Origin: Ignicoccus hospitalis KIN4/I
GTDB lineage: Archaea > Thermoproteota > Thermoprotei_A > Sulfolobales > Ignicoccaceae
Length of the DNA: 32,000 nt
NCBI RefSeq assembly: GCF_000017945.1
Contig: NC_009776.1
Span: forward strand, 1,080,001 to 1,112,000
Direction of reading: 5' to 3'
Shown: positions 4,342 to 30,682 of the stretch, in pieces
Position numbering within the stretch: position 1 is the stretch's first letter
Layout of the letters: every line of letters begins with the position of its first letter
Notes under the pieces: model-generated
The model's input: only the letters and a program-made list of their open reading frames with translations
The model's database searches: none
What the model was told of the DNA's origin: nothing
Made by a program: the position numbers and the translations under genes

Positions 4342-4641
4342 ATGAAGGCCTTCGCCGTGTTCCTCAGCGAGGGCGACGTGTACGAGGACGTTCCCTTGCA
4401 CAAGGTGATTATGGAGAAGGCTAAAGAAATGGGGATATCTGGCATGACTATAATAAAGGGTTATACAGGCTACGGCAAACACAAGGGCACCAGCGAGATA
4501 GACCCGTTCCACGGCTACGGGGACAAGCCGGTAATAGTCGTCGTGATAGAGGAGGAGGAGAAGGGCAAGAAGTTCGTTGAGCTCGTTAAGAGCCTTAAGA
4601 GCGACGCCCTCGTGGTCTCTTGGAACGTGGAGCGCCTATGA
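4342..4641 (+). CDS. DUF190 / UPF0166 PII-like protein
   Basis: 99 aa. The sequence MKAFAVFLSEGDVYEDVPLHKVIMEKAKEMGISGMTIIKGYTGYGKHK...KPVIVVVIEEEEKGKKFVELVKSL matches the DUF190 pattern (i.l.e.d...g.PL...i...a.e.G..GaTv.rG..GfG......lP.vie.vd.ee.i..f). Confidence 0.65.
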   Translation: MKAFAVFLSEGDVYEDVPLHKVIMEKAKEMGISGMTIIKGYTGYGKHKGTSEIDPFHGYGDKPVIVVVIEEEEKGKKFVELVKSLKSDALVVSWNVERL

Positions 4642-4651
4642 GGGAGAGGTC

Positions 4652-5377
4652 ATGGTGGACTTGAGACACCCCCTAGTGCAGGCCGCGTTAATGGTCAACG
4701 AAAAAGAGGTGACTACGAAGCTGCTCCCGTCCAACGCTTACGCGAGCTTAGAGGAGAGCGTCAAGGACTTGGCCGGGCCTTCCGGCTGTCGTCACATAAT
4801 AATAAACATAGGGCTGGTAAACGACAAATGGGACGTAGTAGAGGCGTTAGTGTGTGAGGGCGAGCTGGTCGCTTCTAACGTCGACCTCAAGAGCTACGCG
4901 CCCGAGGCCGAGGTAGAAAGGGTCGTGGGCGAGTGTTACGAGTTCCCCAAGGAATTGATCGAGAAGCTCGAAGAGCTCTCGAAAGTTGAGGTTAAGGAAG
5001 AGGTTGAAAGGTACGAGGCTGTGAAAGTAGTCCGGGCCCCGCCCCTCCCGAGGGCCCGGGCGGAAGAGATAGCCGCGAGGGAGCCCAAGCTCCCGACGGA
5101 CTTGTTGAACAACTTAACGGACGAGTGGGCCACTTACAAGTCCATATCCCACGCACTCATAATCTTCTTGGAAACCAGCGAAGTGGACTCTTACGCCGTG
5201 GCCACGGGCTCCACCGAGGACGGTAAAATAATTAGCTTGGTCTACCTCCCGGCTGAGTACAAGCCCAAGATGGAGGAATTGGAAAAAGAGATAATTAGGG
5301 TTGCCTCTGAGAACGATGTAGACATAGTTTACTTGAACGTAGGAGGGGCGGAAAAGCTAATATCCACTCGGGGATGA
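4652..5377 (+). CDS. hypothetical protein (upstream of sufC)
   Basis: The track ORF is 4577..5377. I prefer the ATG at 4652 (MVDLRHPLVQ...) because it follows GAGGGAGAGG and avoids a 65-nt overlap with the DUF190 gene. Its stop overlaps an ATG at 5374 (ATGA). I recognise no family. Confidence 0.5.
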   Translation: MVDLRHPLVQAALMVNEKEVTTKLLPSNAYASLEESVKDLAGPSGCRHIIINIGLVNDKWDVVEALVCEGELVASNVDLKSYAPEAEVERVVGECYEFPKELIEKLEELSKVEVKEEVERYEAVKVVRAPPLPRARAEEIAAREPKLPTDLLNNLTDEWATYKSISHALIIFLETSEVDSYAVATGSTEDGKIISLVYLPAEYKPKMEELEKEIIRVASENDVDIVYLNVGGAEKLISTRG

Positions 5378-14162: not shown

Positions 14163-15701
14163 TCATATGTCGAAGTACTGGTAGAACTCCGCCGGGTGCG
14201 GGTAGCTCTCTATCTTCAAGCACTCCTCTTTCTTCATCTCTATCCAAGTCTCCAACATCTCCTTGGTGAATATGGGGAACAGCCAGTCGTGGTCGTTCTC
14301 CAGCTCCTCTATCGCCTCGCACAAGGTCCTCGGCAGCTGCAAGGGGGTGCCGAGCTGCTTCCTCACTACCTCTTCCAACTCCCTCCTCGTCTTCGGGTCC
14401 ATGGCGTATATGTTCTGGTCCACCGGCGGCGGGGGCTCGATCTTCTTCTTGATGCCGTCCAAGCCCGCGGCAACCATCGCCGCGAAGGCCAAGTAGGGGT
14501 TGGTGCTGGGGTCGGGGGAGCGGTACTCTATCCTCGCCGCCTTCGGCACTCCCCTCATGTAGTTCGGCACCCTGATTATGGCGGAGCGGTTGGCCTTGCT
14601 CCAAGCTATGTATATGGGGGCCTCGTAGCCCGGCACCAGCCTCTTGTAGCTGGAGGTGGTCGGGTTGACTATCGCGCTGAGCGCCCTGGCGTGCTTCAAG
14701 ATACCTCCTATGTAGTACCTAGCCAGCTGGCTCAGCTCCGCGTACTCGTCGTTGGGGTCGTAGAACAAGTTCTCGTCTTTGTCCTTGCTCCACAAGCTCT
14801 GGTGGGTGTGCATGCCGTTTCCGTTGTCGGCGTAGACGGGCTTGGGCATGAACGTCGCTACCAGGCCGTACTTGGCAGCCACGTTCTTTACCACGAACTT
14901 CAAGGTGACTACCTTGTCAGCCGCTCTGGTGAGCGTGTCGAAACGGAAGTCTATCTCGCCTTGGCCGGGGGAGGCCACCTCGTGGTGGTGAGCCTCCACT
15001 TGTATCCCGAAATGGTCCTCGAGCACGGTAGCTATCTCTTGCCTTATCCAGAACATCTTGTCGTATGGTATGGCCGGCACGTAACCTTCCTCGAACCTTA
15101 TGATCGGGAGCTCCGTGTTCCACGCGGCCTCGGCAGAGACCACCTCCACGTGCATCTTCTTCCAAGGTCTGTCCACCTCATTGATTACTTTGTTGAGTAT
15201 CATGAACTCCACTTCGGGACCGAAGTAGGCCTTGTACCCTTGCTCAGCTAGGTACTCCTCGGCCCTCTCCGCTATGTACCTCGGGTCCTTCTCGAACCTC
15301 TTCGCTTCGCCCTTCTTATAACCTCCCCAGAAGATCTGAGCCAAGAACCTAGCGGTCCTCCCCGCGGCCACCCCCGGAGGGCTCTGCCAGTCGTCCGGAA
15401 TTATTGCGAAGGTCTCCGGCACGGGCCTCAAGAGCATGTCGCTCTCGTTAATCATAGTGAAGCCCTTTATGGAGGAGCCGTCAAAGCCCCCAACGGCGAC
15501 GTTGAAGGCGTTCTCCGGGTCGTCCAGTATCTCCCGCGCGGGGAAGGTCATTTGTTGCAACCTTCCGGGGACGTCCAAGAACTGGACCATCACCCACCTG
15601 ACGTTCTCGGTTTTCATGCTCTCCACTACTTCCTTAACCAACTCCTCGCGTGACACAACTGTTCCCGCGTTCCCCTTCACTGATAAACAAGTATTTATCA
15701 T
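14163..15701 (-). CDS. glnA: glutamine synthetase, type I
   Basis: It has the N-terminal beta-grasp (VRWVMVQFLDVPGRLQ..., FDGSSIKGF) and the catalytic region (FGPEVEFMI, MPKPVYADNGNGMHTHQSLW, NRSAIIRVP, RIEYRSPDPSTNPYLAFAAM). The start is uncertain among ATG 15701, GTG 15680 and ATG 15617. Confidence 0.9.
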   Translation of the reverse strand: MINTCLSVKGNAGTVVSREELVKEVVESMKTENVRWVMVQFLDVPGRLQQMTFPAREILDDPENAFNVAVGGFDGSSIKGFTMINESDMLLRPVPETFAIIPDDWQSPPGVAAGRTARFLAQIFWGGYKKGEAKRFEKDPRYIAERAEEYLAEQGYKAYFGPEVEFMILNKVINEVDRPWKKMHVEVVSAEAAWNTELPIIRFEEGYVPAIPYDKMFWIRQEIATVLEDHFGIQVEAHHHEVASPGQGEIDFRFDTLTRAADKVVTLKFVVKNVAAKYGLVATFMPKPVYADNGNGMHTHQSLWSKDKDENLFYDPNDEYAELSQLARYYIGGILKHARALSAIVNPTTSSYKRLVPGYEAPIYIAWSKANRSAIIRVPNYMRGVPKAARIEYRSPDPSTNPYLAFAAMVAAGLDGIKKKIEPPPPVDQNIYAMDPKTRRELEEVVRKQLGTPLQLPRTLCEAIEELENDHDWLFPIFTKEMLETWIEMKKEECLKIESYPHPAEFYQYFDI

Positions 15702-15729
15702 CTATCCCAATATTACTGAACAATGTTCA
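15681..15729. promoter_or_regulatory. two inverted repeats at the glnA start/leader: TGATAAA-N6-TTTATCA (15681-15700) and TGAACA-A-TGTTCA (15717-15729)
   Basis: Both are perfect palindromic arms read directly from the sequence. They lie between the minus-strand TATA-like TTTATAGAAAT (complement of 15741-15751) and the glnA coding region. A third TGTTCA copy at 15756-15761 flanks the TATA on the other side. A regulatory function is inferred only. Confidence 0.3.
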
Positions 15730-15811
15730 CAAAATTGTCAATTTCTATAAACGTTTGTTCATTTAAGCACGGAAAAGCTAAGGCTCGAGGCAACGCGTGT
15801 TTACGCACTCC

Positions 15812-15827
15812 GTTAGGTATACCTAAC
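15812..15827. promoter_or_regulatory. perfect 16-bp palindrome GTTAGGTATACCTAAC over the putative feoA TATA box (DtxR/IdeR-like half-sites)
   Basis: The palindrome is exact and is centred on TATA, 31-46 nt upstream of the feoA ATG (15858). Its half-sites TTAGGT/ACCTAA match the arms of the DtxR/IdeR iron-box consensus TTAGGTTAGSCTAACCTAA, but with shorter spacing. Confidence 0.45.
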
Positions 15828-15857
15828 AAGTTTTTTAGGAGGGGCTCCCGAGCTTAT

Positions 15858-16097
15858 ATGGGGGTTACGGTGTATCTGTCGGAAGCGCCGGAGGGGTCGT
15901 TGGTAAGGGTAGTTAGGATAGAAGGCGGCTTCGGCGCGGTCAGGAAGTTATACGAACTAGGAATAAGGGAAGGATCAACCATTAAGGTGGTTAGGAACCC
16001 TCCCATAGGGCCCCTAATAGTGGAGGTGGACGGTTCGACAATAGCTTTAGGGAGGGGCATAGCTTCCAAAGTCGCGGTGGAGGTTGTGGAGCGGTGA
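15858..16097 (+). CDS. feoA: FeoA-family (DtxR C-terminal SH3-like) domain protein
   Basis: 79 aa from ATG 15858. The sequence MGVTVYLSEAPEGSLVRVVRIEGGFGAVRKLYELGIREGSTIKVVRNPPIGPLIVEVDGSTIALGRGIASKVAVEVV fits the FeoA pattern (L..l..G....v..i......rrL..lGi..G..i.v.......p..v.v.g....l....A..i.v). The track's longer 15723 start would run through the promoter palindromes. Confidence 0.7.
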   Translation: MGVTVYLSEAPEGSLVRVVRIEGGFGAVRKLYELGIREGSTIKVVRNPPIGPLIVEVDGSTIALGRGIASKVAVEVVER

Positions 16098-19033: not shown

Positions 19034-19581
19034 CCCCTAACAGCCCTCTCCAACAGCGCGAGCTCGGCTAAGTATTCGAGTGCCTCGAGCTTGTTCAGCG
19101 CCTCGTAGGGGTCCTTACCCAAGGCGACTGCCCCGTGACCCTCGAGCAAGATCACGTCCGCCCTGGTGGACTCCTCCGCGACCCTCCGGGCGAGCTCCTC
19201 GCTCCCGGCCTCTAAGGGCGGAACCCTCGCCAGCTCCCTTATCGCGTAGGCCGTCTCCACGTACTCGCTGGGGTCCAGCGGGAGCCCTAGCTTTGCGGCC
19301 AAGACCGCTTTGGGGTTGTGGGCGTGCACCACCGAGCGCGCGTCGGTCTTCATGTATATTAGGGCGTGCATCTTGTACTCTATGGAAGGCTTCGGCCCTC
19401 GCCACTTCAAGTCGTTCAAGCTCACTACGCTCAGCTCCTTTATATCGTTCTTCGGTACGCCGGAAGGCGTTATTAGGAAGACGTCCCCGCACCTCGCGCT
19501 GGCGTTGCCGCTCAACACCGTTATCATTCCCTTTTGATAGAGCAACTTCATGACTTCAATTACTGGGCGCGCGTCACACAA
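19030..19581 (-). CDS. class II aldolase/adducin-family protein (fuculose-1-P aldolase / MtnB / ribulose-5-P epimerase-like)
   Basis: 183 aa. It shows GNASAR, FLITPSG, metal-ligand His residues in VVHAHNP, and LLEGHGAVALGKDPYEAL. Substrate specificity cannot be decided by eye. Confidence 0.8.
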   Translation of the reverse strand: MCDARPVIEVMKLLYQKGMITVLSGNASARCGDVFLITPSGVPKNDIKELSVVSLNDLKWRGPKPSIEYKMHALIYMKTDARSVVHAHNPKAVLAAKLGLPLDPSEYVETAYAIRELARVPPLEAGSEELARRVAEESTRADVILLEGHGAVALGKDPYEALNKLEALEYLAELALLERAVRG

Positions 19582-19999
19582 GGCCCAGTCCCCGGAGCCT
19601 GCGCAAGACCTCGTTTAGGGCCTTCCACTCCTCGGGGAAGACCCTCTCCGGCGGGTTGTTAACCACCTCTTCCCAGTTGTGCTTGACCCACGAGCACGCT
19701 CTCGAAACTTCTATAAACACCTTCCCGTCCTTAACCCTGACGTTGAGCGGGTACATCTTACAGCTCAATGGCTTTTTCTCGTGAATCTTACACCTCCCCG
19801 TCTCGGGGTCGTTGAAGGGGCACCGGCCCTTGATCACCCAGCGGTAGAGGCCGGGGAGGAGCTCTACGAACTCCCTCTGCCCCATCCTCTCCAGCTCCTC
19901 CTTCTCGTCTTCAAACACCACCGGCATCTCGTCCTCCCTCTCGAAGACGCAGCAGCGCTTGCACTCCTCGTTATACGGGCATTTGAACAAGGAGGGCAC
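19574..19999 (-). CDS. YkgJ/UPF0153-type Cys-cluster (putative Zn/Fe-S) protein
   Basis: The C-terminal motif GRCPFNDPETGRCKIHEKKPLSCKMYP matches C.fl....g.C.iy..RP..Cr.yP. An N-terminal CPYNEECKRCC motif matches C..C...CC. The track ORF starts at ATG 20095, but residues 1-32 look like antisense of the ferredoxin gene. I therefore place the start at GTG 19999 (TTG 19990 is also possible). Confidence 0.6.
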   Translation of the reverse strand: MPSLFKCPYNEECKRCCVFEREDEMPVVFEDEKEELERMGQREFVELLPGLYRWVIKGRCPFNDPETGRCKIHEKKPLSCKMYPLNVRVKDGKVFIEVSRACSWVKHNWEEVVNNPPERVFPEEWKALNEVLRRLRGLGLV

Positions 20000-20012
20000 C
20001 GGGGGAGACCCT

Positions 20013-20231
20013 TTGGAGGAGGGGTTAGGGAGGGTTTCGGTCGACCCGGAAAGGTGTGACGGCTGCGGCCTGTGCGTTGAGCTGTGTCCCTTCAACTCCC
20101 TAGCGATGGAGGGCGGAACGGTGAGGCAAGTAGGGCCTTGTTACCTCTGCGGGGGCTGTGAGGCCTTATGCAAGGCGATAAGGGTAGAACCTTTGTTGGA
20201 GCCTAAGGAGTTCGATGAAGGCTTCCGCTAA
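20013..20231 (+). CDS. 2x[4Fe-4S] ferredoxin-type small protein
   Basis: It has CDGCGLCVELCP (CxxCxxCxxxCP) and CYLCGGCEALC (CxxCxxCxxxC). The start is uncertain among ATG 19959, TTG 19983 and TTG 20013. All three choices overlap or abut the divergent YkgJ-like gene. Confidence 0.65.
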   Translation: MEEGLGRVSVDPERCDGCGLCVELCPFNSLAMEGGTVRQVGPCYLCGGCEALCKAIRVEPLLEPKEFDEGFR

Positions 20232-20484: not shown

Positions 20485-20943
20485 ATGACCTACGAGCTGG
20501 TCAAAACCGATGAAGGCACTTTAAGCGTTAAAGGTCATTCGATCCGATTTATGCTCATTCCCTCCTCCGCATTAGTTAAGATACACGAGGAACTCAAGAA
20601 AGTGTTGGGACCGGCGGCGGACGTAATGATGAGGAAGGTAGGGGAGGGCTTTGGAGAAGCGGTAGTGGAGTTGGTCAAAAAGGAGGAGGGCAGCGACGTA
20701 GATTCGATAAAGAGGTTTTTGGAGAAGAGCGGGTTCGGCGTTGTGGAAATAACTTCGGAGGGAAATGACAACTGCACCATTACGATACACAAGGCCCCCT
20801 CTAGGGACTTCGACACCAACGTGTGCAAGTTCGAGGAAGGAATAATAAAGGTGCTCTTAGAGGCCTTCAACGGAGGGAAGTGGAAGGTAAGGACCGTTAA
20901 GGCGGAAGGGGAGGACTGCGTCATAGAGGCGACCAAGGGCTAG
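20485..20943 (+). CDS. V4R (4-vinyl reductase-type) small-molecule-binding domain protein
   Basis: 152 aa. The N-terminal part, ...GHSIRFMLIPSSALVKIHEELKKVLGPAADVMMRKVGEGFGEAVV, and the C-terminal part, ...NVCKFEEGIIKVLLEAFNGGKWKVRTVKAEGEDCVIE, fit the V4R pattern (R..l.......l...l....G..a...ly..G...G ... C....G...G.l.........v.E..C...G...C.f). TACTATAAAT lies about 32 nt and GAGGTGAAGG about 17 nt upstream of the ATG. Confidence 0.6.
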   Translation: MTYELVKTDEGTLSVKGHSIRFMLIPSSALVKIHEELKKVLGPAADVMMRKVGEGFGEAVVELVKKEEGSDVDSIKRFLEKSGFGVVEITSEGNDNCTITIHKAPSRDFDTNVCKFEEGIIKVLLEAFNGGKWKVRTVKAEGEDCVIEATKG

Positions 20944-21300: not shown

Positions 21301-22104
21301 TTAAATCTCCTTTCCTATCAAGAGTTTTATTATTTTGATTATGTCGTCTCCAGTGATTTTAGCCTCATCATTAATATTAATCCCACAACAACATAGGACA
21401 TAGGCGTAGAACAGCGCCGCCGCGTCGCCCTTCCACGGACAGTAGGGGAACCTGAATTTGTCCCTCGTGAGGGCCGCCCTAACGACCTCGTAGAACCACT
21501 CCGACCTGGAATCCAGCTTTTCCTCGCTCTTCAGGTAGGTGACGGCGGCCGCTAGGAGCAAGAACTTGCAGAACAGCTCTTGATTATCGATGCACTCCTT
21601 CACGTCACTTAAAGCTTGAGAAAGTCCCTGGGCCTTTCCATCATCGTAGCAAGTGTTGAACAGGTGTAGGATTTTATTGAGCTTAGACTTTTTCTCTCTA
21701 TCAATGGTATCCCAATTCTCCTTCAATTTTTCCAATAAATCCTTCAAGATCACGGTGCAATCATCTTGGCCCTTTCCACTGTCCCGTAGTTCTTTATGTA
21801 AACTCTTCTCTAGATCGTTAGGGTCTATCCCGGCTTCATGTACAGTCTTATTTAATACCTCCCTTAAGAACTTCTCCAAGAACCTCTTCGGGTCGTCCTT
21901 GCAGACGTCCTCACCCTCAAACAAGTTGTTCGAGAGCCCCTTCGCCAAATCTTTTAGCAGCTCTGAGGGGCTTACCTCATTGACGCCCTTCTCTTCACAC
22001 TTGCCTTTGCCCTCCTTTGGCCTCGGTAATACCTTTAGGAGGTTGTCGAGTTTCGTGAGTTCGTTCGCGCTCGACCCACTCCCTCCCGAGTCCTCATTGC
22101 TCAA
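21301..22104 (-). CDS. orphan Cys-rich, Lys/Asp/Glu-rich hypothetical protein with atypical composition (TTG start, no internal Met)
   Basis: This is a 267-aa open frame whose only canonical start is TTG 22104. It has ten Cys, including a VLCCCG run and FPYCPW, and a Gly/Ser-rich N-terminus. It uses AAA, GAT, AAT, TTA and CAT codons that the neighbours avoid. My hand count of 21301-22080 gives about 47% G+C, with 60-nt stretches of about 28-42%. I recognise no family. Confidence 0.5.
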   Translation of the reverse strand: MSNEDSGGSGSSANELTKLDNLLKVLPRPKEGKGKCEEKGVNEVSPSELLKDLAKGLSNNLFEGEDVCKDDPKRFLEKFLREVLNKTVHEAGIDPNDLEKSLHKELRDSGKGQDDCTVILKDLLEKLKENWDTIDREKKSKLNKILHLFNTCYDDGKAQGLSQALSDVKECIDNQELFCKFLLLAAAVTYLKSEEKLDSRSEWFYEVVRAALTRDKFRFPYCPWKGDAAALFYAYVLCCCGININDEAKITGDDIIKIIKLLIGKEI

Positions 22105-22164
22105 CCCTTCTCGCCATTTGAGACGGAAGGTGGCCGTTATTTATTCGTTCTCACAAGCTGTGGA

Positions 22165-23047
22165 TCAAATTAGCCAAGCGCGTCCGGACTTCGCTCGCAC
22201 AGCCGTCGTACCTCTTGAAGTCGGCCCTATAGCTCCCCTCAGCGCCCTCTTCAAAGAACAGAGCGTGTTCACGCCCTCAACCTTAGAGACCCAAAGCTCG
22301 GCGTAACCCTTGATCAGCTCATCGAGCTTGGAGGTGTCGGGAGAGTTAGGGCGGAGGACCTTGTTCGCCGCCTCCAACATTTTTCCAACGTTTCGTCCGT
22401 ACCTCCCTCGCCCCGCTTGCCGGCCTCGAATTCGATTAGCGCGAACCTCCCGAAGCCCCACCTGGTCGCCCTGCCCACGCCATAGAGGGTCATAACGACT
22501 AGCGCGGTAGCGGCGAAGAGCGGGAAGAGCTCCTCGGCCTTTTCATTGACGTCGCTGGTTCGCGGCTTGAGGAAGACCTCCACCTCCAACTTCCCGGCGT
22601 CGACGAAGGGAACCTCCGCCGTCCCTGACGGGGGCGAGCACGAAACCTTAGCTTTGGACGGGTCCTCGGAGAGGTTGTACCTCACAGTGAGGTTGAAGGG
22701 GCTCCCCCACGATGACTTCTTGCCGACCCTGCCGAACATGAACTCGGTCAGCCTTAGCTCAAGGCTGGTCTTATCGGAGAGTTTTACCGTTATCGTATCT
22801 CTCCTCAAGCATTTGCTCTGTCCCTCCATTGCCTCGCTCAGCCTCCTCATCCTGCCTATTATGGAGTAGGGCTGGGGTCCCCCCTACGTAGCGCTCGCCG
22901 CAAGCGGACTGTCTGAAAGGCCCCCGCGTCGCCGCTGGAGAAGGGGGTGACGTTGACGAACCTCATTTTGAGGTACCTCTTCGGCGTGAAAAGCCTCTTC
23001 TCCACCTCCTTAGCCGTCAGAGCTACGCCGTAACTCGTCGAGAGCAA
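22165..23047 (-). pseudogene. RAMP-superfamily (Cmr1-like) CRISPR-associated gene interrupted by two frameshifts
   Basis: Three successive ORFs lie in three different frames (22859-23047, 22314-22850, 22165-22461). The N-terminus is ...MRFVNVTPFSSGDAGAFQTVRLRRALRR. The central part carries the glycine-rich RAMP loop LYGVGRATRWGFGRFALIEF. The frame breaks are placeable at C6 (22879-22884) and T5 (22380-22384). Confidence 0.5.
22314..22850 (-). CDS. largest intact frame of the RAMP-like gene (would be annotated as a 178-aa hypothetical protein)
   Basis: It starts at ATG and contains ...TITVKLSDKTSLELRL...FNLTVRYNL...LEVEVFLKP...FAATALVVMTLYGVGRATRWGFGRFALIEFE. The last roughly 40 residues (CWRRRTRSSALTLPTPPSSMS) look out of frame. 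Confidence 0.5.
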   Translation of the reverse strand: MRRLSEAMEGQSKCLRRDTITVKLSDKTSLELRLTEFMFGRVGKKSSWGSPFNLTVRYNLSEDPSKAKVSCSPPSGTAEVPFVDAGKLEVEVFLKPRTSDVNEKAEELFPLFAATALVVMTLYGVGRATRWGFGRFALIEFEAGKRGEGGTDETLEKCWRRRTRSSALTLPTPPSSMS

Positions 23048-23173: not shown

Positions 23174-23722
23174 TTGAGCCCGGAGGAGTTCGATAAGGAA
23201 ACTGTTGCTAAGGTCTTCGCCAACTTCGCCGAGAAGTTCATGTTCGACACCCTCCCCAAGAACTTAAAGAAGTACGTCGGAGAGGGGGCGGCGACCGCGT
23301 TGATCTTCAACATAGTTAAGGAAGGTGCCAAGGAAACCATGGGAGAGGAGCTGAAGAAGATGATAAAGGTAGAGAGTCTGAAGGACGCCATGAAGGCTTG
23401 TTATTTGCCCTACAAGCTCGTAGGCATGGAGTTCGAGTACGAGGAGGCCGAGGAGGGCGACGAGTACGTCTTCAAAGTCACTAAGTGTCCGCACTTCAAG
23501 TACACCAAGGACATGCCCTTCGCTTGCGCCGCGTGCGCGGCGATAAAGGCCGGTATAATAGAGAAGCTCGAGGACAAGCCCGTCCAAATAGTGTTCAAGG
23601 GGACCAGGAGGCTCGGCAGCCGCGAGCCCGGGATCTTGATAGAAGTAGTCAAGCACATGCCCTCCGGAGACCCCTACTGCGAGTTCCGGTTGAAGGAGCT
23701 ACCCAGACAAGGCCAGAGTTAG
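23174..23722 (+). CDS. V4R / ATC-hydrolase-like Cys-motif small-molecule-binding protein (tentative)
   Basis: 182 aa with a TTG start (the alternative ATG gives MFDTLPK). The C-terminal half, ...VFKVTKCPHFKYTKDMPFACAACAAIKAGIIEKLEDKPVQIVFKG...VKHMPSGDPYCEFRLKE, fits the C...C....G...G......v......C..Gd..C.F pattern. Composition is host-like. Confidence 0.45.
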   Translation: MSPEEFDKETVAKVFANFAEKFMFDTLPKNLKKYVGEGAATALIFNIVKEGAKETMGEELKKMIKVESLKDAMKACYLPYKLVGMEFEYEEAEEGDEYVFKVTKCPHFKYTKDMPFACAACAAIKAGIIEKLEDKPVQIVFKGTRRLGSREPGILIEVVKHMPSGDPYCEFRLKELPRQGQS

Positions 23723-24433
23723 GAGAGCGTATTCTTCCCACCACCTCCCCCCTTTTAGGGCGCACAGCGCCGCCAGAGCAGCTTCCGCGGGGGAGCACCT
23801 CCCGGTCACCAAGTCCCTCAAGAGGGACTTAGCCAACTGGGCCAGCGGGGGGTCGTAGTAGAGGGCGTAGGCGTAGAGCGAGTACAACAAGTTAACGGTC
23901 TTGGTAAAGTTTCCTCCGTGAAGCCTCCTAGCCAAGGTTTTGAACGCGTAAAGCTCCCCCATGTTCAAGTTCGAAGGGGCGCAAGGCGCCGGAGGGGGCC
24001 TCAAACCTTTAGCGAGGCTCTCGTACGTCCCTTTCAAGACTAAGAAGCAATACAAGGCCCGGGCGTCCTCGCGCCCCTCCAAGCACTTCAAGAACTCCTC
24101 CAACCCCTTGGCCTCTGGGTAGGAGGAGACCATGACGTAGTACCACTGGCCGTAGGTCCTTAGCTCTAAGAGGTTCTTCACCTTCGGGAGCCTCGCGGTG
24201 AGGGCCTCCACGAGTTCCCCCGCGAGCCTCTTGGGGTAGTCCGGCGGCAGCAGCCCCCTCGAGCGGTAGCATAGCGTCCTATTCGTCAACGAGCTGAGCA
24301 GCCACAAGGTCAAGTCTGTGGCTAACAAACTCCCCTCCCTTAGGGAGTAAGATATCGCGTGGGCCCCGCAGTCCGTAACGGGCAGTTGGGCTGTCAAGTT
24401 GGCAATTACAACGTAGAGCAGGGTTGTGTTCAA
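23699..24433 (-). CDS. hypothetical protein (Leu/Ala-rich, helical)
   Basis: 244 aa with a TTG start. Its 3' end overlaps the convergent V4R-like gene by 24 nt. Codon usage is host-like. No recognisable motif, and the start is uncertain. Confidence 0.45.
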   Translation of the reverse strand: MNTTLLYVVIANLTAQLPVTDCGAHAISYSLREGSLLATDLTLWLLSSLTNRTLCYRSRGLLPPDYPKRLAGELVEALTARLPKVKNLLELRTYGQWYYVMVSSYPEAKGLEEFLKCLEGREDARALYCFLVLKGTYESLAKGLRPPPAPCAPSNLNMGELYAFKTLARRLHGGNFTKTVNLLYSLYAYALYYDPPLAQLAKSLLRDLVTGRCSPAEAALAALCALKGGRWWEEYALLTLALSG

Positions 24434-28644: not shown

Positions 28645-30078
28645 TTGGTGACGCCGTTCTCAGATGAGCTGAGAAAGTACAGGCCGGCGTTCGAACGGGT
28701 TAAGATACTTGACGCCACCTTGAGGGAGGGGGAGCAGACCCCGGGCGTCTCCTTCACTATAGACCAGAAGCTGGAGATAGCGAAGAAGCTGGACGAGATA
28801 GGCGTCCACATGATAGAGGCCGGCCACCCGGCGGTGGCGCCGGACGTGTACGAGGCCGTGAGGAGGATAGCGTGGATGAAGAAGGAGGGGGAGATAAGGG
28901 CCGAGGTCGTGGCCCACAGCAGGGCGGTCAAGAGCGACATAGACAAGGCCGCGGAGACCGAAGCGGATAGGATAGCCATCTTCTACGGGGTCAGCGACAT
29001 ACACTTGAACGCTAAACACAAGAAGACGAGGGAAGAGGCCCTCAGCATAATCGGCGAAATGGTGGAGTACGCGAAGGGTTACGGCGTGAAGGTAAGGTTC
29101 ACCGCCGAGGACGCCTCGAGGGCGGACTTGCAGTACTTGGAGCAAGTGGTCAAGACCGCGAGGGACGCGGGGGCGGACAGGGTGAGCTTGGCCGACACGG
29201 TAGGGGTACTAACCCCGTGGACCGCTCAGAAGTTCTTCGAACACATGGTAAAGGCAGTCCCTAACGTTGAATACGACATCCACGCTCACAATGACTTAGG
29301 CATGGCGCTGGCCACGGCGTTCGGGGCGGTAATGGGAGGGGCCACGGCAGTACACGTGACAGTAAACGGGCTGGGCGAGAGGGTGGGCATAGTCCCCCTC
29401 CAGCTCTTCGCGGTGGCGGTGAAGGTACACTTCGACGTGGAGCTGGTGAAGCTGAGCGGCCTGATGGAGTTGACGAGGATGGTCGAGCGCTACTCCGGCA
29501 TAGAGGTCCCCTACAACATGCCGGTCATAGGCGACTACGCGTTCTTGCACAAGGCCGGCGTCCACGTGGCCGGCATACTGGCAGACCCGAGGACCTACGA
29601 GGCCTTCCCGCCGGAGATGATAGGGAGGAGCAGGGACTACGTGATAGACAAATACACCGGAAAGAAGGCAGTGAAGGCGAAGCTCGAGAAGCTCGGAATA
29701 AAGGTGGACGACGACACGCTGATGAAGATACTAGAAGAGATAAAGAGGAGCAACTTAAGGTTCCTCACCGACGACGCGTTGATAAGCATCGCTGAGAAGG
29801 TGAGCGGCAAGGTGCTCAGGCCCAAGGCGACGGAGAACGTGGAGGCGGTGGTCTGGGTGAAGGTGGACAGCAACGCCTTTACGGGCTCGGTGGCCCGGAG
29901 GCTGAGCAACATAGAGGGCGTTAAGGAGGTTTCCGAAGTAACTGGCGACTATGACTTGCTAGTGAGGATAGAGGCCCCAGACCACAAAGTGCTAAATACC
30001 ATACTGGACACCGTGAGGGGCATGAAGGGTATAGTAGGTACCCACACCCAAATAGTCCTCAAGAAGCTCGAGAAGTGA
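28645..30078 (+). CDS. 2-isopropylmalate / citramalate / homocitrate synthase-family enzyme with C-terminal RAM (AsnC-type) regulatory domain
   Basis: The DRE-TIM barrel shows LDATLREGEQTPGV, ...HAHNDLGMALA..., and HVTVNGLGERVGI. The C-terminal roughly 80 aa, AVVWVKVDSNAFTGSVARRLSNIEGVKEVSEVTGDYDLLVRIEAPDHKVLNTILDTVRGMKGIVGTHTQIVL, form a RAM module in place of the bacterial LeuA dimer/regulatory domain. It has a GTG start. Confidence 0.85.
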   Translation: MVTPFSDELRKYRPAFERVKILDATLREGEQTPGVSFTIDQKLEIAKKLDEIGVHMIEAGHPAVAPDVYEAVRRIAWMKKEGEIRAEVVAHSRAVKSDIDKAAETEADRIAIFYGVSDIHLNAKHKKTREEALSIIGEMVEYAKGYGVKVRFTAEDASRADLQYLEQVVKTARDAGADRVSLADTVGVLTPWTAQKFFEHMVKAVPNVEYDIHAHNDLGMALATAFGAVMGGATAVHVTVNGLGERVGIVPLQLFAVAVKVHFDVELVKLSGLMELTRMVERYSGIEVPYNMPVIGDYAFLHKAGVHVAGILADPRTYEAFPPEMIGRSRDYVIDKYTGKKAVKAKLEKLGIKVDDDTLMKILEEIKRSNLRFLTDDALISIAEKVSGKVLRPKATENVEAVVWVKVDSNAFTGSVARRLSNIEGVKEVSEVTGDYDLLVRIEAPDHKVLNTILDTVRGMKGIVGTHTQIVLKKLEK

Positions 30079-30682
30079 ACCCTCTCTCCTTCAACAACTC
30101 CTCCTTAGCCTTCTCTATAGCTAGATCGAGCGCGAGCCTCTTTATCATATTTTCTAACTCAGAGGCGCTCAAGGGGCCTACGTGGAGCAGCTCTCTCCCA
30201 ACGGCGTAGGCCGGCACGGCGTTGGCTCCCAAGGAGCGCAACTCTTTCAACCTCTTTTCGGAATCTACGTGAATTACTTCGAGCTCTAAGTTCGTGTACT
30301 TCCTTATTAGAGGCGCCGCCTCTTTCAGCGCCTTATAGCAAGGTAAGCCCGGGTATACGTAGAGCTTGAGCTTCACCGGGTGGGGGAGCGACTCCTCGCC
30401 CGTTCCCTTGGAGAGCTCCTTCAACACCTCTAGGAAACCCGGTATCAGGACGCCCTTTAAGGAGCCGTAGAACGTCACTTTACAAACCCCGTCCTTACAA
30501 GCCCTCAAGTAAGGCTTCTTGGAAGGGTCTTCGGGTTCCTTCCCTTCGATTACCTTCACGCCCCTGACTTCCTTCAAGGGCGAGGCCTCTTCCAGAGGGA
30601 AGGCTTCTACGACCACCTCGCCCTCCAGCTCAGTTATCTTCTTCAAACCTAAGAGTTGGAATAAGAACTCCAGCTCCTTCAA
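30059..30682 (-). CDS. thioredoxin/glutaredoxin-fold protein (PDO-like) with single-Cys active-site position
   Basis: 207 aa. The C-terminal domain, LKLYVYPGLPCYKALKEAAPLIRKY.NLELEVIHVDSEKRLKELRSLGANAVPAYAVGRELLHVGPLSASELENMI, fits the thioredoxin_3 pattern, but CxxC is reduced to C-Y-K-A. Its 3' end overlaps the convergent synthase gene by 20 nt. Confidence 0.5.
   Translation of the reverse strand: MKELEFLFQLLGLKKITELEGEVVVEAFPLEEASPLKEVRGVKVIEGKEPEDPSKKPYLRACKDGVCKVTFYGSLKGVLIPGFLEVLKELSKGTGEESLPHPVKLKLYVYPGLPCYKALKEAAPLIRKYTNLELEVIHVDSEKRLKELRSLGANAVPAYAVGRELLHVGPLSASELENMIKRLALDLAIEKAKEELLKERGFTSRAS

Follow-up and report, generated by a model that had tools for sequence, protein, structure and literature searches.

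The set of accessory proteins known from type III CRISPR systems is still growing, and those characterised so far are mostly bacterial or come from Sulfolobales. One of them, Cmr7, is a decorating subunit that occurs in many copies and is not all-helical. Shah et al. (2018; PMC6546367) treat Cmr7 as a Sulfolobales-specific additional cas gene, and they present clusters 83, 84 and 108 as small crenarchaeal families that are recognised only by lying next to type III genes and match nothing in databases. Here, we describe Igni_1240, a gene for a protein of 267 amino acids (aa) on the minus strand of a stretch of 32,000 nucleotides (nt) of Ignicoccus hospitalis KIN4/I (NC_009776.1, positions 1,080,001 to 1,112,000; the whole stretch is referred to as the window). 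The gene belongs to a protein family that is tightly linked to type III-B (Cmr) genes, a linkage of which we are highly confident, and Igni_1240 itself is probably an undescribed Cmr-associated accessory protein that was orphaned in Ignicoccus beside a decayed cmr1-like gene.

At 100% identity, the open reading frame (ORF) corresponds to hypothetical protein ABU82416.1 of I. hospitalis (WP_012123380.1, UniProt A8ABW4, arCOG09413), for which no papers were found by accession, locus tag or arCOG number. Among 5.8 billion proteins, it was matched only by proteins of I. hospitalis, Ignicoccus islandicus (EYM_02180, 301 aa) and one Ignicoccus-like metagenome-assembled genome (MAG; GCA_054020855.1, locus L003, 305 aa), with no match from Nanoarchaeota. 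Both orthologues are free-standing genes which start with GTG (I. islandicus) or ATG (L003) at an aligned Met-Ser N-terminus, and their C-terminal 120 residues are highly conserved. A search of 1.84 billion representative proteins with a profile built from these three Ignicoccus-type sequences defined a family of 40 members at E < 1e-3 (23 at E < 1e-10) that range from 167 to 358 aa and contain 2-16 cysteines and 0-7 internal methionines. Where a source is named, it is I. hospitalis, I. islandicus, Hyperthermus butylicus or a MAG labelled Pyrodictiaceae, Desulfurococcales or “Crenarchaeota.” Judged by source name (six members) and by gene context (most of the 14 loci described below), the family is confined, among the members identified, to Desulfurococcales/Pyrodictiaceae-type Thermoproteota; the other members carry no taxonomy, and no Nanoarchaeota origin was traced for any relative in the profile search. 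Some searches were less productive: scans of genome, metagenome and viral collections with the Ignicoccus-only alignment found nothing, the search patterns being too clade-specific, and a search of a large protein set with a trimmed core alignment returned nothing, while an alignment of an 11-sequence subset of the family yielded three loci in the locus scans.

Genomic context was compared at 14 independent loci, mostly on longer contigs, out of the 40 members. Type III-B cmr/csx genes or their remnants adjoin the family gene in 12 of these 14, arranged as follows:

L012, L017, L018 and L019: co-directional family gene, Cmr4, Cmr5-like, Cmr1, Cmr6, Cas10/Cmr2 and Cmr3
L013, L014 and L016: family gene, then the N-terminal part of Cmr4 at the contig end (gaps 105, 6 and -4 nt, respectively)
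L015 (H. butylicus, complete genome): cmr4, cmr5, cmr1, cmr6, cmr2, cmr3, the family gene 35 nt after cmr3, then a CRISPR array
L011: family gene divergent from cmr2, with cmr3, cmr4-6, cas6 and csa3 nearby
L008 (Pyrodictiaceae): family gene between a CARF-HEPN csx1 and Cmr3-like fragments
L009: family gene, then a Cmr3-like fragment downstream
Window (I. hospitalis): Igni_1240 with a frameshifted RAMP gene upstream

In seven loci, the family gene precedes cmr4 on the strand of the cas genes. The subunits Cmr4, Cmr1, Cmr6 and Cmr2 of L012 were confirmed by NCBIfam; the Cmr4 N-termini of L013 and L014 are 59-72% identical to the L012 protein, and the Cmr4 fragment of L016 was recognised by eye from shared N-terminal motifs. 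In H. butylicus, the array directly 3' of the family gene (L015:11231-15166) comprises at least 46 repeats (CTTGCAATTCTCTTTTGAGTTGTTC) and is followed by the Nob1/PIN gene Hbut_0719. At L008:2704-3470, the family member itself is split over two frames (167 and 97 aa) and is followed by a Cmr3-like gene that is likewise in fragments; this reflects either an assembly error or a second decaying cassette. The only loci of the 14 that show no adjacent cas gene are those of I. islandicus and L003. The family thus combines a recurrent, position-conserved adjacency to cmr genes with the presence of type III machinery in I. hospitalis, namely Cmr4 (two copies), Cas10, Cmr5, Cmr6, a further RAMP and a DxTHG Csx1, which is the pattern looked for in a Cmr-associated accessory gene. 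An earlier note, made from the window sequence alone, had suggested among other possibilities an accessory partner of the adjacent RAMP, and the linkage bears this out.

In the window, the features of the Igni_1240 locus are as follows:

21301..22104, minus strand: Igni_1240 coding sequence, 267 aa, member of an unnamed Cmr-linked family predicted to be all-helical (ORF list, proteomics, profile search)
22102..22104, minus strand: TTG start, the first in-frame start after TAA 22143-22141
21673..22104, minus strand: N-terminal half, fast-evolving, K/E/D/N-rich, predicted helical, orthologue identity only 29-38%
21385..21672, minus strand: C-terminal conserved core, approximately aa 145-240 (family alignments), orthologue identity in Ignicoccus 54%
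22105..22164, minus strand: spacer of 60 nt, read with the in-frame stops TGA 22167-22165, which closes the RAMP fragment, and TAA 22143-22141
22165..23047, minus strand: decayed RAMP gene, probably cmr1-like, one former gene in three frames (translations)
23047-22859, minus strand: first RAMP piece (Igni_1242, 62 aa)
22850-22314, minus strand: second RAMP piece (Igni_1241, 178 aa)
22461-22165, minus strand: third RAMP piece

The coding features first noted for Igni_1240 were all reproduced. No in-frame ATG or GTG occurs between the TTG and the upstream stop, the sequence contains no internal Met codon (P = 0.005 at the Met frequency of 2.0% in window genes), and its ten cysteines amount to 3.8% as compared to 1.0% in window genes (P = 3e-4). 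Members of the family are mostly Met-poor and Cys-rich, so that both properties can be considered a family tendency. The frame is that of the last RAMP fragment, from which it is separated, as had been described, by 60 nt with the two stops. Within this spacer, a TATA-like box (AATAAATAA, 22145-22137) lies ~37 nt upstream of the TTG, which suggests that Igni_1240 has its own putative promoter. An ORF on the opposite strand (21653-22306, plus strand) has no support for coding and is taken as a shadow ORF.

The assignment of the RAMP remnant draws on several comparisons that point in one direction with weak to moderate strength. Its match to Pfam RAMPs stayed below the cut-off (E = 0.014), blastx against the L012 Cmr1 gave E = 0.05, and hhalign against a Cmr1-like profile aligned the G-rich loop GVGRATRWGFGRF with a probability of 69% (E = 4.5e-5); NCBIfam returned no match for the I. 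hospitalis remnant and only a weak Cmr1 match (E = 0.083) for that of I. islandicus. The former gene was therefore probably cmr1-like. A homologous remnant is located in I. islandicus (CP006867, L001:694-1035), ~7 kb upstream of EYM_02180; its segment GGPRSYSIIGRMRWLS is 81% identical to the window copy over GGPxxYSIIGRMRxLS, and it carries an in-frame stop (RFVN*TPY), unlike the I. hospitalis lesion. The I. islandicus remnant also has a G+C content of 0.348, below its locus mean, whereas the I. hospitalis remnant is at genome level.

Around the family gene, no synteny was detected between I. hospitalis and I. islandicus or L003, the sole shared feature being the RAMP remnant in I. islandicus. 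Vertical orthologues, whose existence had been put forward as a check on foreign origin, do exist, although the gene is placed differently in I. hospitalis than in the other two genomes. The slot that it occupies in I. islandicus and L003 lies between a 138-aa gene and PmbA with the nuo operon. The divergently oriented 138-aa gene (L001:7460-7876 and L003:7309-7725, both minus strand) is 73% identical between these genomes and has no Pfam match. I. hospitalis Igni_0330 is likewise a 138-aa hypothetical protein, encoded directly after a cmr3-like gene (PMC3149612, Table S1), and homology of the two would point to an ancestral linkage of cmr genes, the 138-aa gene and the family gene.

Expression of Igni_1240 is documented by the published proteome (Giannone et al., 2011; PMC3149612), in agreement with the check that had been proposed. 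In Table S1 of that study, Iho_1240 is listed as a 267-aa “uncharacterized conserved protein” of arCOG 9413, predicted to lack a signal peptide and a transmembrane domain, with adjusted spectral counts of 9 in pure culture and 5 in co-culture. After re-normalisation (9.8 versus 8.4), there is no change in the presence of Nanoarchaeum equitans, and the abundance therefore gives no pointer to a role in the symbiosis. For the RAMP fragments Iho_1241 and Iho_1242, the spectral counts are 0. Igni_1240 is therefore a real, functional and expressed gene that is made at a low level, and no remnant. Cmr proteins are expressed from other I. hospitalis loci (PMC3149612): Igni_0327 (Cmr4), Igni_0328 (Cas10) and Igni_0329 (a Cmr3-like RAMP), next to the DxTHG Csx1 Igni_0326, and Igni_0460-0462 (Cmr4, Cmr5 and Cmr6), so that partners for an orphaned gene are available in trans. 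With Igni_1240, the CRISPR system of I. hospitalis, which is dispersed among three or more loci, gains a further piece. Neither a CRISPR array nor an Rfam match was found within the window.

Sequence conservation divides the protein into two halves. Family alignments show an N-terminal L-x2-LL-x-P motif, the core motifs LLDTCY(D/N)-x2-KA-x2-L-x2-AL, LLLAAAxY, EWF-x2-L-x-RAAA and YLPxCP-x2-GD-x-AA-x2-YY, and an amphipathic helix at the C-terminus. In Igni_1240, the core reads (D/N)TCY-x3-KA-x2-L-x2-AL, FLLLAAAxxY, EWFxxxxRAA and (F/L)PxCPxxGDxAAxxY, and the near-invariant positions are D/N150, T151, C152, Y153, L161, W203, G226, D227, A230 and Y233; the Ignicoccus clade shares the variant FKFPYCPW. 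The family gene diverges far faster than its surroundings, as identity amounts to 39% between the orthologues of I. islandicus and L003 but to 72-94% for their syntenic flanking genes.

With an alignment of only three sequences, AlphaFold gave an unusable model (mean pLDDT, the predicted local distance difference test, of 47.7). Based on the 40-sequence alignment, AlphaFold2 predicted 12 helices with a mean pLDDT of 88.1 (93-98 in the conserved core) and a predicted template modelling (TM) score of 0.89; the only strand pairing spans two residues (43-44 with 250-251). Foldseek searches with this model yielded nothing significant in the PDB (best E = 1.4, TM score below 0.23) or in BFVD (best E = 0.47), and a profile search of PDB sequences with the family returned only designed helical bundles at E > 0.007. 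The predicted fold is therefore apparently new, being all-helical and unmatched in the PDB and BFVD. Over the 40 members, there was no consistent Pfam match, as the 14 models that appeared are unrelated and were each matched weakly by a single member; NCBIfam and PHROGs matched no member, and PADLOC produced scattered weak hits only. Two matches obtained with the single Igni_1240 sequence, UCH (E = 0.0011) and Cas2 (E = 0.077), were rejected as sub-threshold noise.

According to our preferred model, the family represents a conserved seventh gene of type III-B cassettes that already encode Cmr1 to Cmr6. The gene is usually situated directly upstream of cmr4, in some cases with translational coupling between the two. 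Among Ignicoccus species, the cassette has probably fallen apart, leaving Igni_1240 next to the frameshifted cmr1-like RAMP with its own TTG and TATA-like box, from where it may act in trans with the intact, expressed modules Igni_0326-0329 and Igni_0460-0462. The protein might assist the Cmr effector complex as a cofactor that lacks catalytic activity or as an accessory subunit present in sub-stoichiometric amounts, its conserved C-terminal helical core making the Cmr contact and its fast-diverging N-terminal half forming a surface exposed to an arms race with viruses. Such a role fits because the gene has a fixed place by cmr4, with overlap or short gaps, in operons that contain the six canonical subunits, and because the protein combines a conserved core and a hypervariable half with no sensor, nuclease or membrane signature. 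We infer both that the protein physically associates with the Cmr complex and that its two halves divide the roles in this way, and this specific mechanism is tentatively put forward as plausible, at somewhat less than even chances. A still more detailed version is possible yet doubtful: the family would be the seventh component of a type III-B variant specific to Desulfurococcales, with a new fold and an N-terminal half driven by viruses (for example, as a shield or decoy against anti-CRISPR proteins), would owe its AT-richness to allele replacement or mRNA selection, and would work with the distant Cmr loci.

Several points weigh against the proposal of a Cmr-associated accessory protein. 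Its mode of action is deduced solely from gene order. The 14 loci, mostly on longer contigs, cover only part of the 40 members. Three Ignicoccus-type genomes have retained the family gene after loss of the adjacent cmr genes, and in two of them it now lies by PmbA and the nuo operon, so that the function of the family may not depend strictly on Cmr. The normalised count of ~10 for Igni_1240 is 4-30x below those of the Cmr subunits (35-285) and near that of the ancillary Csx1 (~7), which argues against a stoichiometric or multi-copy structural subunit such as Cmr7 and leaves the role of an ancillary effector or regulator open. The G+C content of the RAMP remnant is genome-typical (0.593), and neutral drift alone thus fails to explain the AT-richness of Igni_1240. 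Finally, although the main text of Shah et al. (2018; PMC6546367) contains no mention of the family, it might be listed among the supplementary clusters.

The best of the alternatives, though unlikely in our view, is an ancillary effector or signal regulator that does not bind Cmr. Such a protein, with a new helical ligand-binding fold, could sense or degrade the Cas10 second messenger or act in the manner of a toxin. Non-CARF sensors with new folds exist, as exemplified by Csx23. The Csx1-like abundance, unlike that of the Cmr subunits, would agree with this explanation, as would the persistence of the gene after loss of the adjacent cmr genes, which fits a trans-acting module. However, library scans and the Table S1 prediction revealed no CARF, SAVED, HEPN, nuclease or transmembrane signature, and the fixed spot directly 5' of cmr4, with overlaps or short gaps, is more typical of complex components. 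The conserved Arg of EWFxxxxRAA is not followed by a His 4-6 residues downstream, as the HEPN motif Rx4-6H would require, and the family was rejected as a CARF/SAVED/HEPN effector after Pfam, NCBIfam and PADLOC gave no consistent hit over 40 members. The partner Cas10/Cmr2 proteins of L011, L012, L015 and L017-L019 (1163-1367 aa) all carry the N-terminal LHDPPWK (HD) motif and differ in their cyclase motif. GGDD, kept in L011 and L015, and GGDE in L012 count in favour of this alternative; loci in which the family gene comes first, however, show GGDE (L012), GGDQ (L017) or AGDE (L018, L019), which may be impaired in some cases. Cyclic-oligoadenylate signalling may therefore have been lost in part of this Cmr variant, and the varied motifs give no clear steer on the mechanism of the family.

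Rather improbable is an exaptation, in which the Ignicoccus protein would now serve a non-CRISPR role and the RAMP remnant would be only a historical trace. The slot conserved between I. islandicus and L003, with the 138-aa gene and PmbA plus nuo and no adjacent cas gene, speaks for it, as does the clade-specific motif FKFPYCPW. Nevertheless, the family-invariant residues are retained, apart from a conservative D150N, the full Cmr machinery is still expressed in I. hospitalis, and the abundance of Igni_1240 is unaffected by N. equitans.

A regulator that controls transcription or translation of the cmr cassette has slightly less to recommend it and is a poor candidate. A leading position in the operon in seven loci, the divergent arrangement with cmr2 in L011 and the low abundance of Igni_1240 would all suit such a protein, but no helix-turn-helix or other nucleic acid-binding domain was detected by sequence or fold search. 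Moreover, the family gene is the last of the H. butylicus operon, and a fast-evolving half would be unusual in an autoregulator.

The base composition of Igni_1240 had initially been read as the mark of a gene acquired laterally from a virus, a plasmid or a symbiont. The atypical composition itself was confirmed by comparison with the 33 other genes of the window: G+C is 47.6% versus ~58% (z = -3.1), and the gene ranks lowest in the window both in G+C and in G+C at third codon positions (GC3, z = -3.35). Where ~47% (21301-22080), ~41% (21661-21900) and ~28% (last 60 nt) G+C had been estimated, recomputation gave 0.476 for the whole gene, 0.408 for 21661-21900 and 0.283 for the last 60 nt. Approximately 0.04 of the deficit of ~0.10 (~40%) is due to amino acid composition, which is rich in K, N and D, and the remainder to synonymous codon choice, GC3 being 0.628 versus 0.807 expected from the protein's own amino acids (z = -3.8). 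The codons AAA, GAT, AAT, CAT and TTA, already singled out as atypical, are over-used 2-13x within their synonymous sets relative to window genes.

This deficit is shared by the family. In 13 of the 14 loci, whose G+C contents span 0.43 to 0.62, the G+C content of the family gene falls below that of the remaining locus (mean -0.10, range +0.01 to -0.25; Wilcoxon p = 2.4e-4). The L003 orthologue shows an extreme deviation (z = -6.7, GC3 0.47 versus 0.77 expected), and the N-terminal half is the most AT-rich part in Ignicoccus-type orthologues. In H. butylicus, the entire cmr cassette (0.51-0.59) lies below its housekeeping neighbours (0.64-0.70), and the family gene is no outlier inside it. AT-richness and atypical codons consequently characterise the entire family in a stable manner, and cmr cassettes to a milder degree, and they offer no evidence for a recent import into I. 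hospitalis; the notion that foreign composition marks import also has to be set against the orthologues in I. islandicus and the Ignicoccus-like MAG. Neutral AT-drift is unlikely in I. hospitalis because of the genome-typical G+C of the adjacent pseudogene. For the fast evolution of the gene, diversifying selection, repeated allele replacement from a mobile cmr pool and mRNA selection are possible explanations. A single-gene AT-rich “island” can thus be a stable trait of a fast-evolving defence gene, and caution is advised before it is taken as a mark of transfer.

A recent lateral gain from a virus, a plasmid or Nanoarchaeum, perhaps of an anti-defence gene that came to lie beside the RAMP by coincidence, is therefore very improbable. 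Cas cassettes are prone to horizontal transfer. In favour of a gain, the lowest G+C and GC3 of the window can be cited, together with the divergence of the orthologues, which far exceeds that of their flanks and could reflect in situ replacement by distant alleles. Against it, two IMG/VR scans gave no confirmed family homologue, PHROGs matched 0 of 40 members, BFVD gave no significant hit, and the 5.8 billion proteins held no homologue outside Desulfurococcales-type archaea. The G+C deficit is, furthermore, common to 13 of the 14 host genomes, and clade-specific motifs are common to the three Ignicoccus-type proteins. An anti-CRISPR or virus-derived gene was rejected on the IMG/VR, PHROGs and BFVD results; the absence from viral collections is weak evidence, because viruses of Ignicoccus and its relatives are poorly sampled, and the location within the cmr operon, on the cas strand, in seven loci is atypical of an anti-CRISPR gene. 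A transfer from N. equitans was likewise rejected, as the 5.8 billion proteins held no homologue from Nanoarchaeota and none of the profile-search members with an identified source was traced to that group. The last alternative, a non-functional RAMP pseudogene extension or a chance ORF, as suggested by the RAMP frame, the TTG start and the lack of Met and earlier entertained as a decayed extension of that gene, has a negligible probability in view of the detected peptides, the 40 homologues with a conserved core, the free-standing orthologues with aligned N-termini, the confident all-helical model and the 54% identity of the C-terminal half across Ignicoccus species.

Other parts of the window and of the compared loci showed features of their own. 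Small proteins of the V4R/MetOD1 type bracket the Igni_1240 locus (Igni_1239, 20485-20943, plus strand; Igni_1243, 23174-23722, plus strand) and are abundant in the proteome, with 140 and 539 spectral counts, respectively. Igni_1239 is itself low in GC3 (0.675, 0.12 below expectation), and a depressed GC3, ~0.10 below expectation, was also found for 30059-30682 (minus strand; 0.69), whose 207-aa product has no recorded Pfam hit, and for 4577-5377 (plus strand; 0.70). The lowest G+C outside Igni_1240 (0.46-0.50) occurs at 15436-16097, between the glutamine synthetase and FeoA-like genes, where only short ORFs with a poor codon signal are present. Igni_1244 (23699-24433, minus strand; 244 aa, TTG start) has no family match and spectral counts of 0, overlaps both the end of Igni_1243 and the start of the PilT-type ATPase gene, and is of uncertain gene status. 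The start of Igni_1237 (19574-20095, minus strand), which encodes a CxxCxxCC domain, differs among assemblies, giving products of 103 to 173 aa. In I. islandicus, a block of ~4 kb with low G+C (L001:3918-7876; 0.37-0.41 versus 0.47-0.50) upstream of EYM_02180 encodes WD40/beta-propeller-like proteins (344 and 693 aa) and small ORFs, and the AT-rich region there extends beyond the single family gene.

With respect to the literature on type III accessory genes, the family of Igni_1240 is apparently undescribed in the sources consulted, and it has no Pfam, NCBIfam or PADLOC model. Hoikkala et al. (2024; PMC11229360) make no mention of these organisms. “Cmr8” (PMC3936711) is an unrelated family from oral-microbiome bacteria, and the sole H. 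butylicus entry in the main text of Shah et al. (2018; PMC6546367), Hbut_0719 of cluster 166, is the Nob1/PIN nuclease encoded a few genes away and not the family gene. The family was also rejected as a branch of the RAMP superfamily, given that no PF03787 hit was obtained, the model is all-helical and the homologues are free-standing. With its fixed place in full cmr operons and a confident predicted fold that is unmatched, it offers a concrete target for reconstitution and cryo-electron microscopy.

Three groups of known proteins invite comparison. Cas11/Cmr5 and the analogues Csx19 and Csx24 resemble the family in being purely alpha-helical, as predicted here, and encoded within type III operons. 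However, the family protein is ~100 aa longer, and a Cmr5 or Cmr5-like gene is already present in the family operons; because of this co-occurrence and an hhalign probability of 1.6%, the family is considered to be no Cmr5 variant, in line with the missing fold match in the PDB, in which Cas11 structures are assumed to be included. Clusters 83, 84 and 108, as portrayed in the main text of Shah et al. (2018; PMC6546367), are similarly crenarchaea-specific, unannotated and known only by type III adjacency; they measure 160-180 aa, are tied to a Cas_RecF ATPase (cluster 17) and include one with a transmembrane signal, whereas the family proteins compared with them measure 220-360 aa, are soluble and are tied to cmr4 or cmr3. 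Cmr7 of the Sulfolobales Cmr-beta type differs from the family, which is predicted to be all-helical, in showing no sequence or fold similarity (nothing below E = 1.4 in the PDB by Foldseek), and the abundance of Igni_1240 is far below that of Cmr subunits. Like Cmr7, however, the family consists of an extra, lineage-restricted gene in a full cmr1-6 cassette, with no catalytic motif and dispensable in other lineages, and the likeness between the two is thus one of genomic role only.

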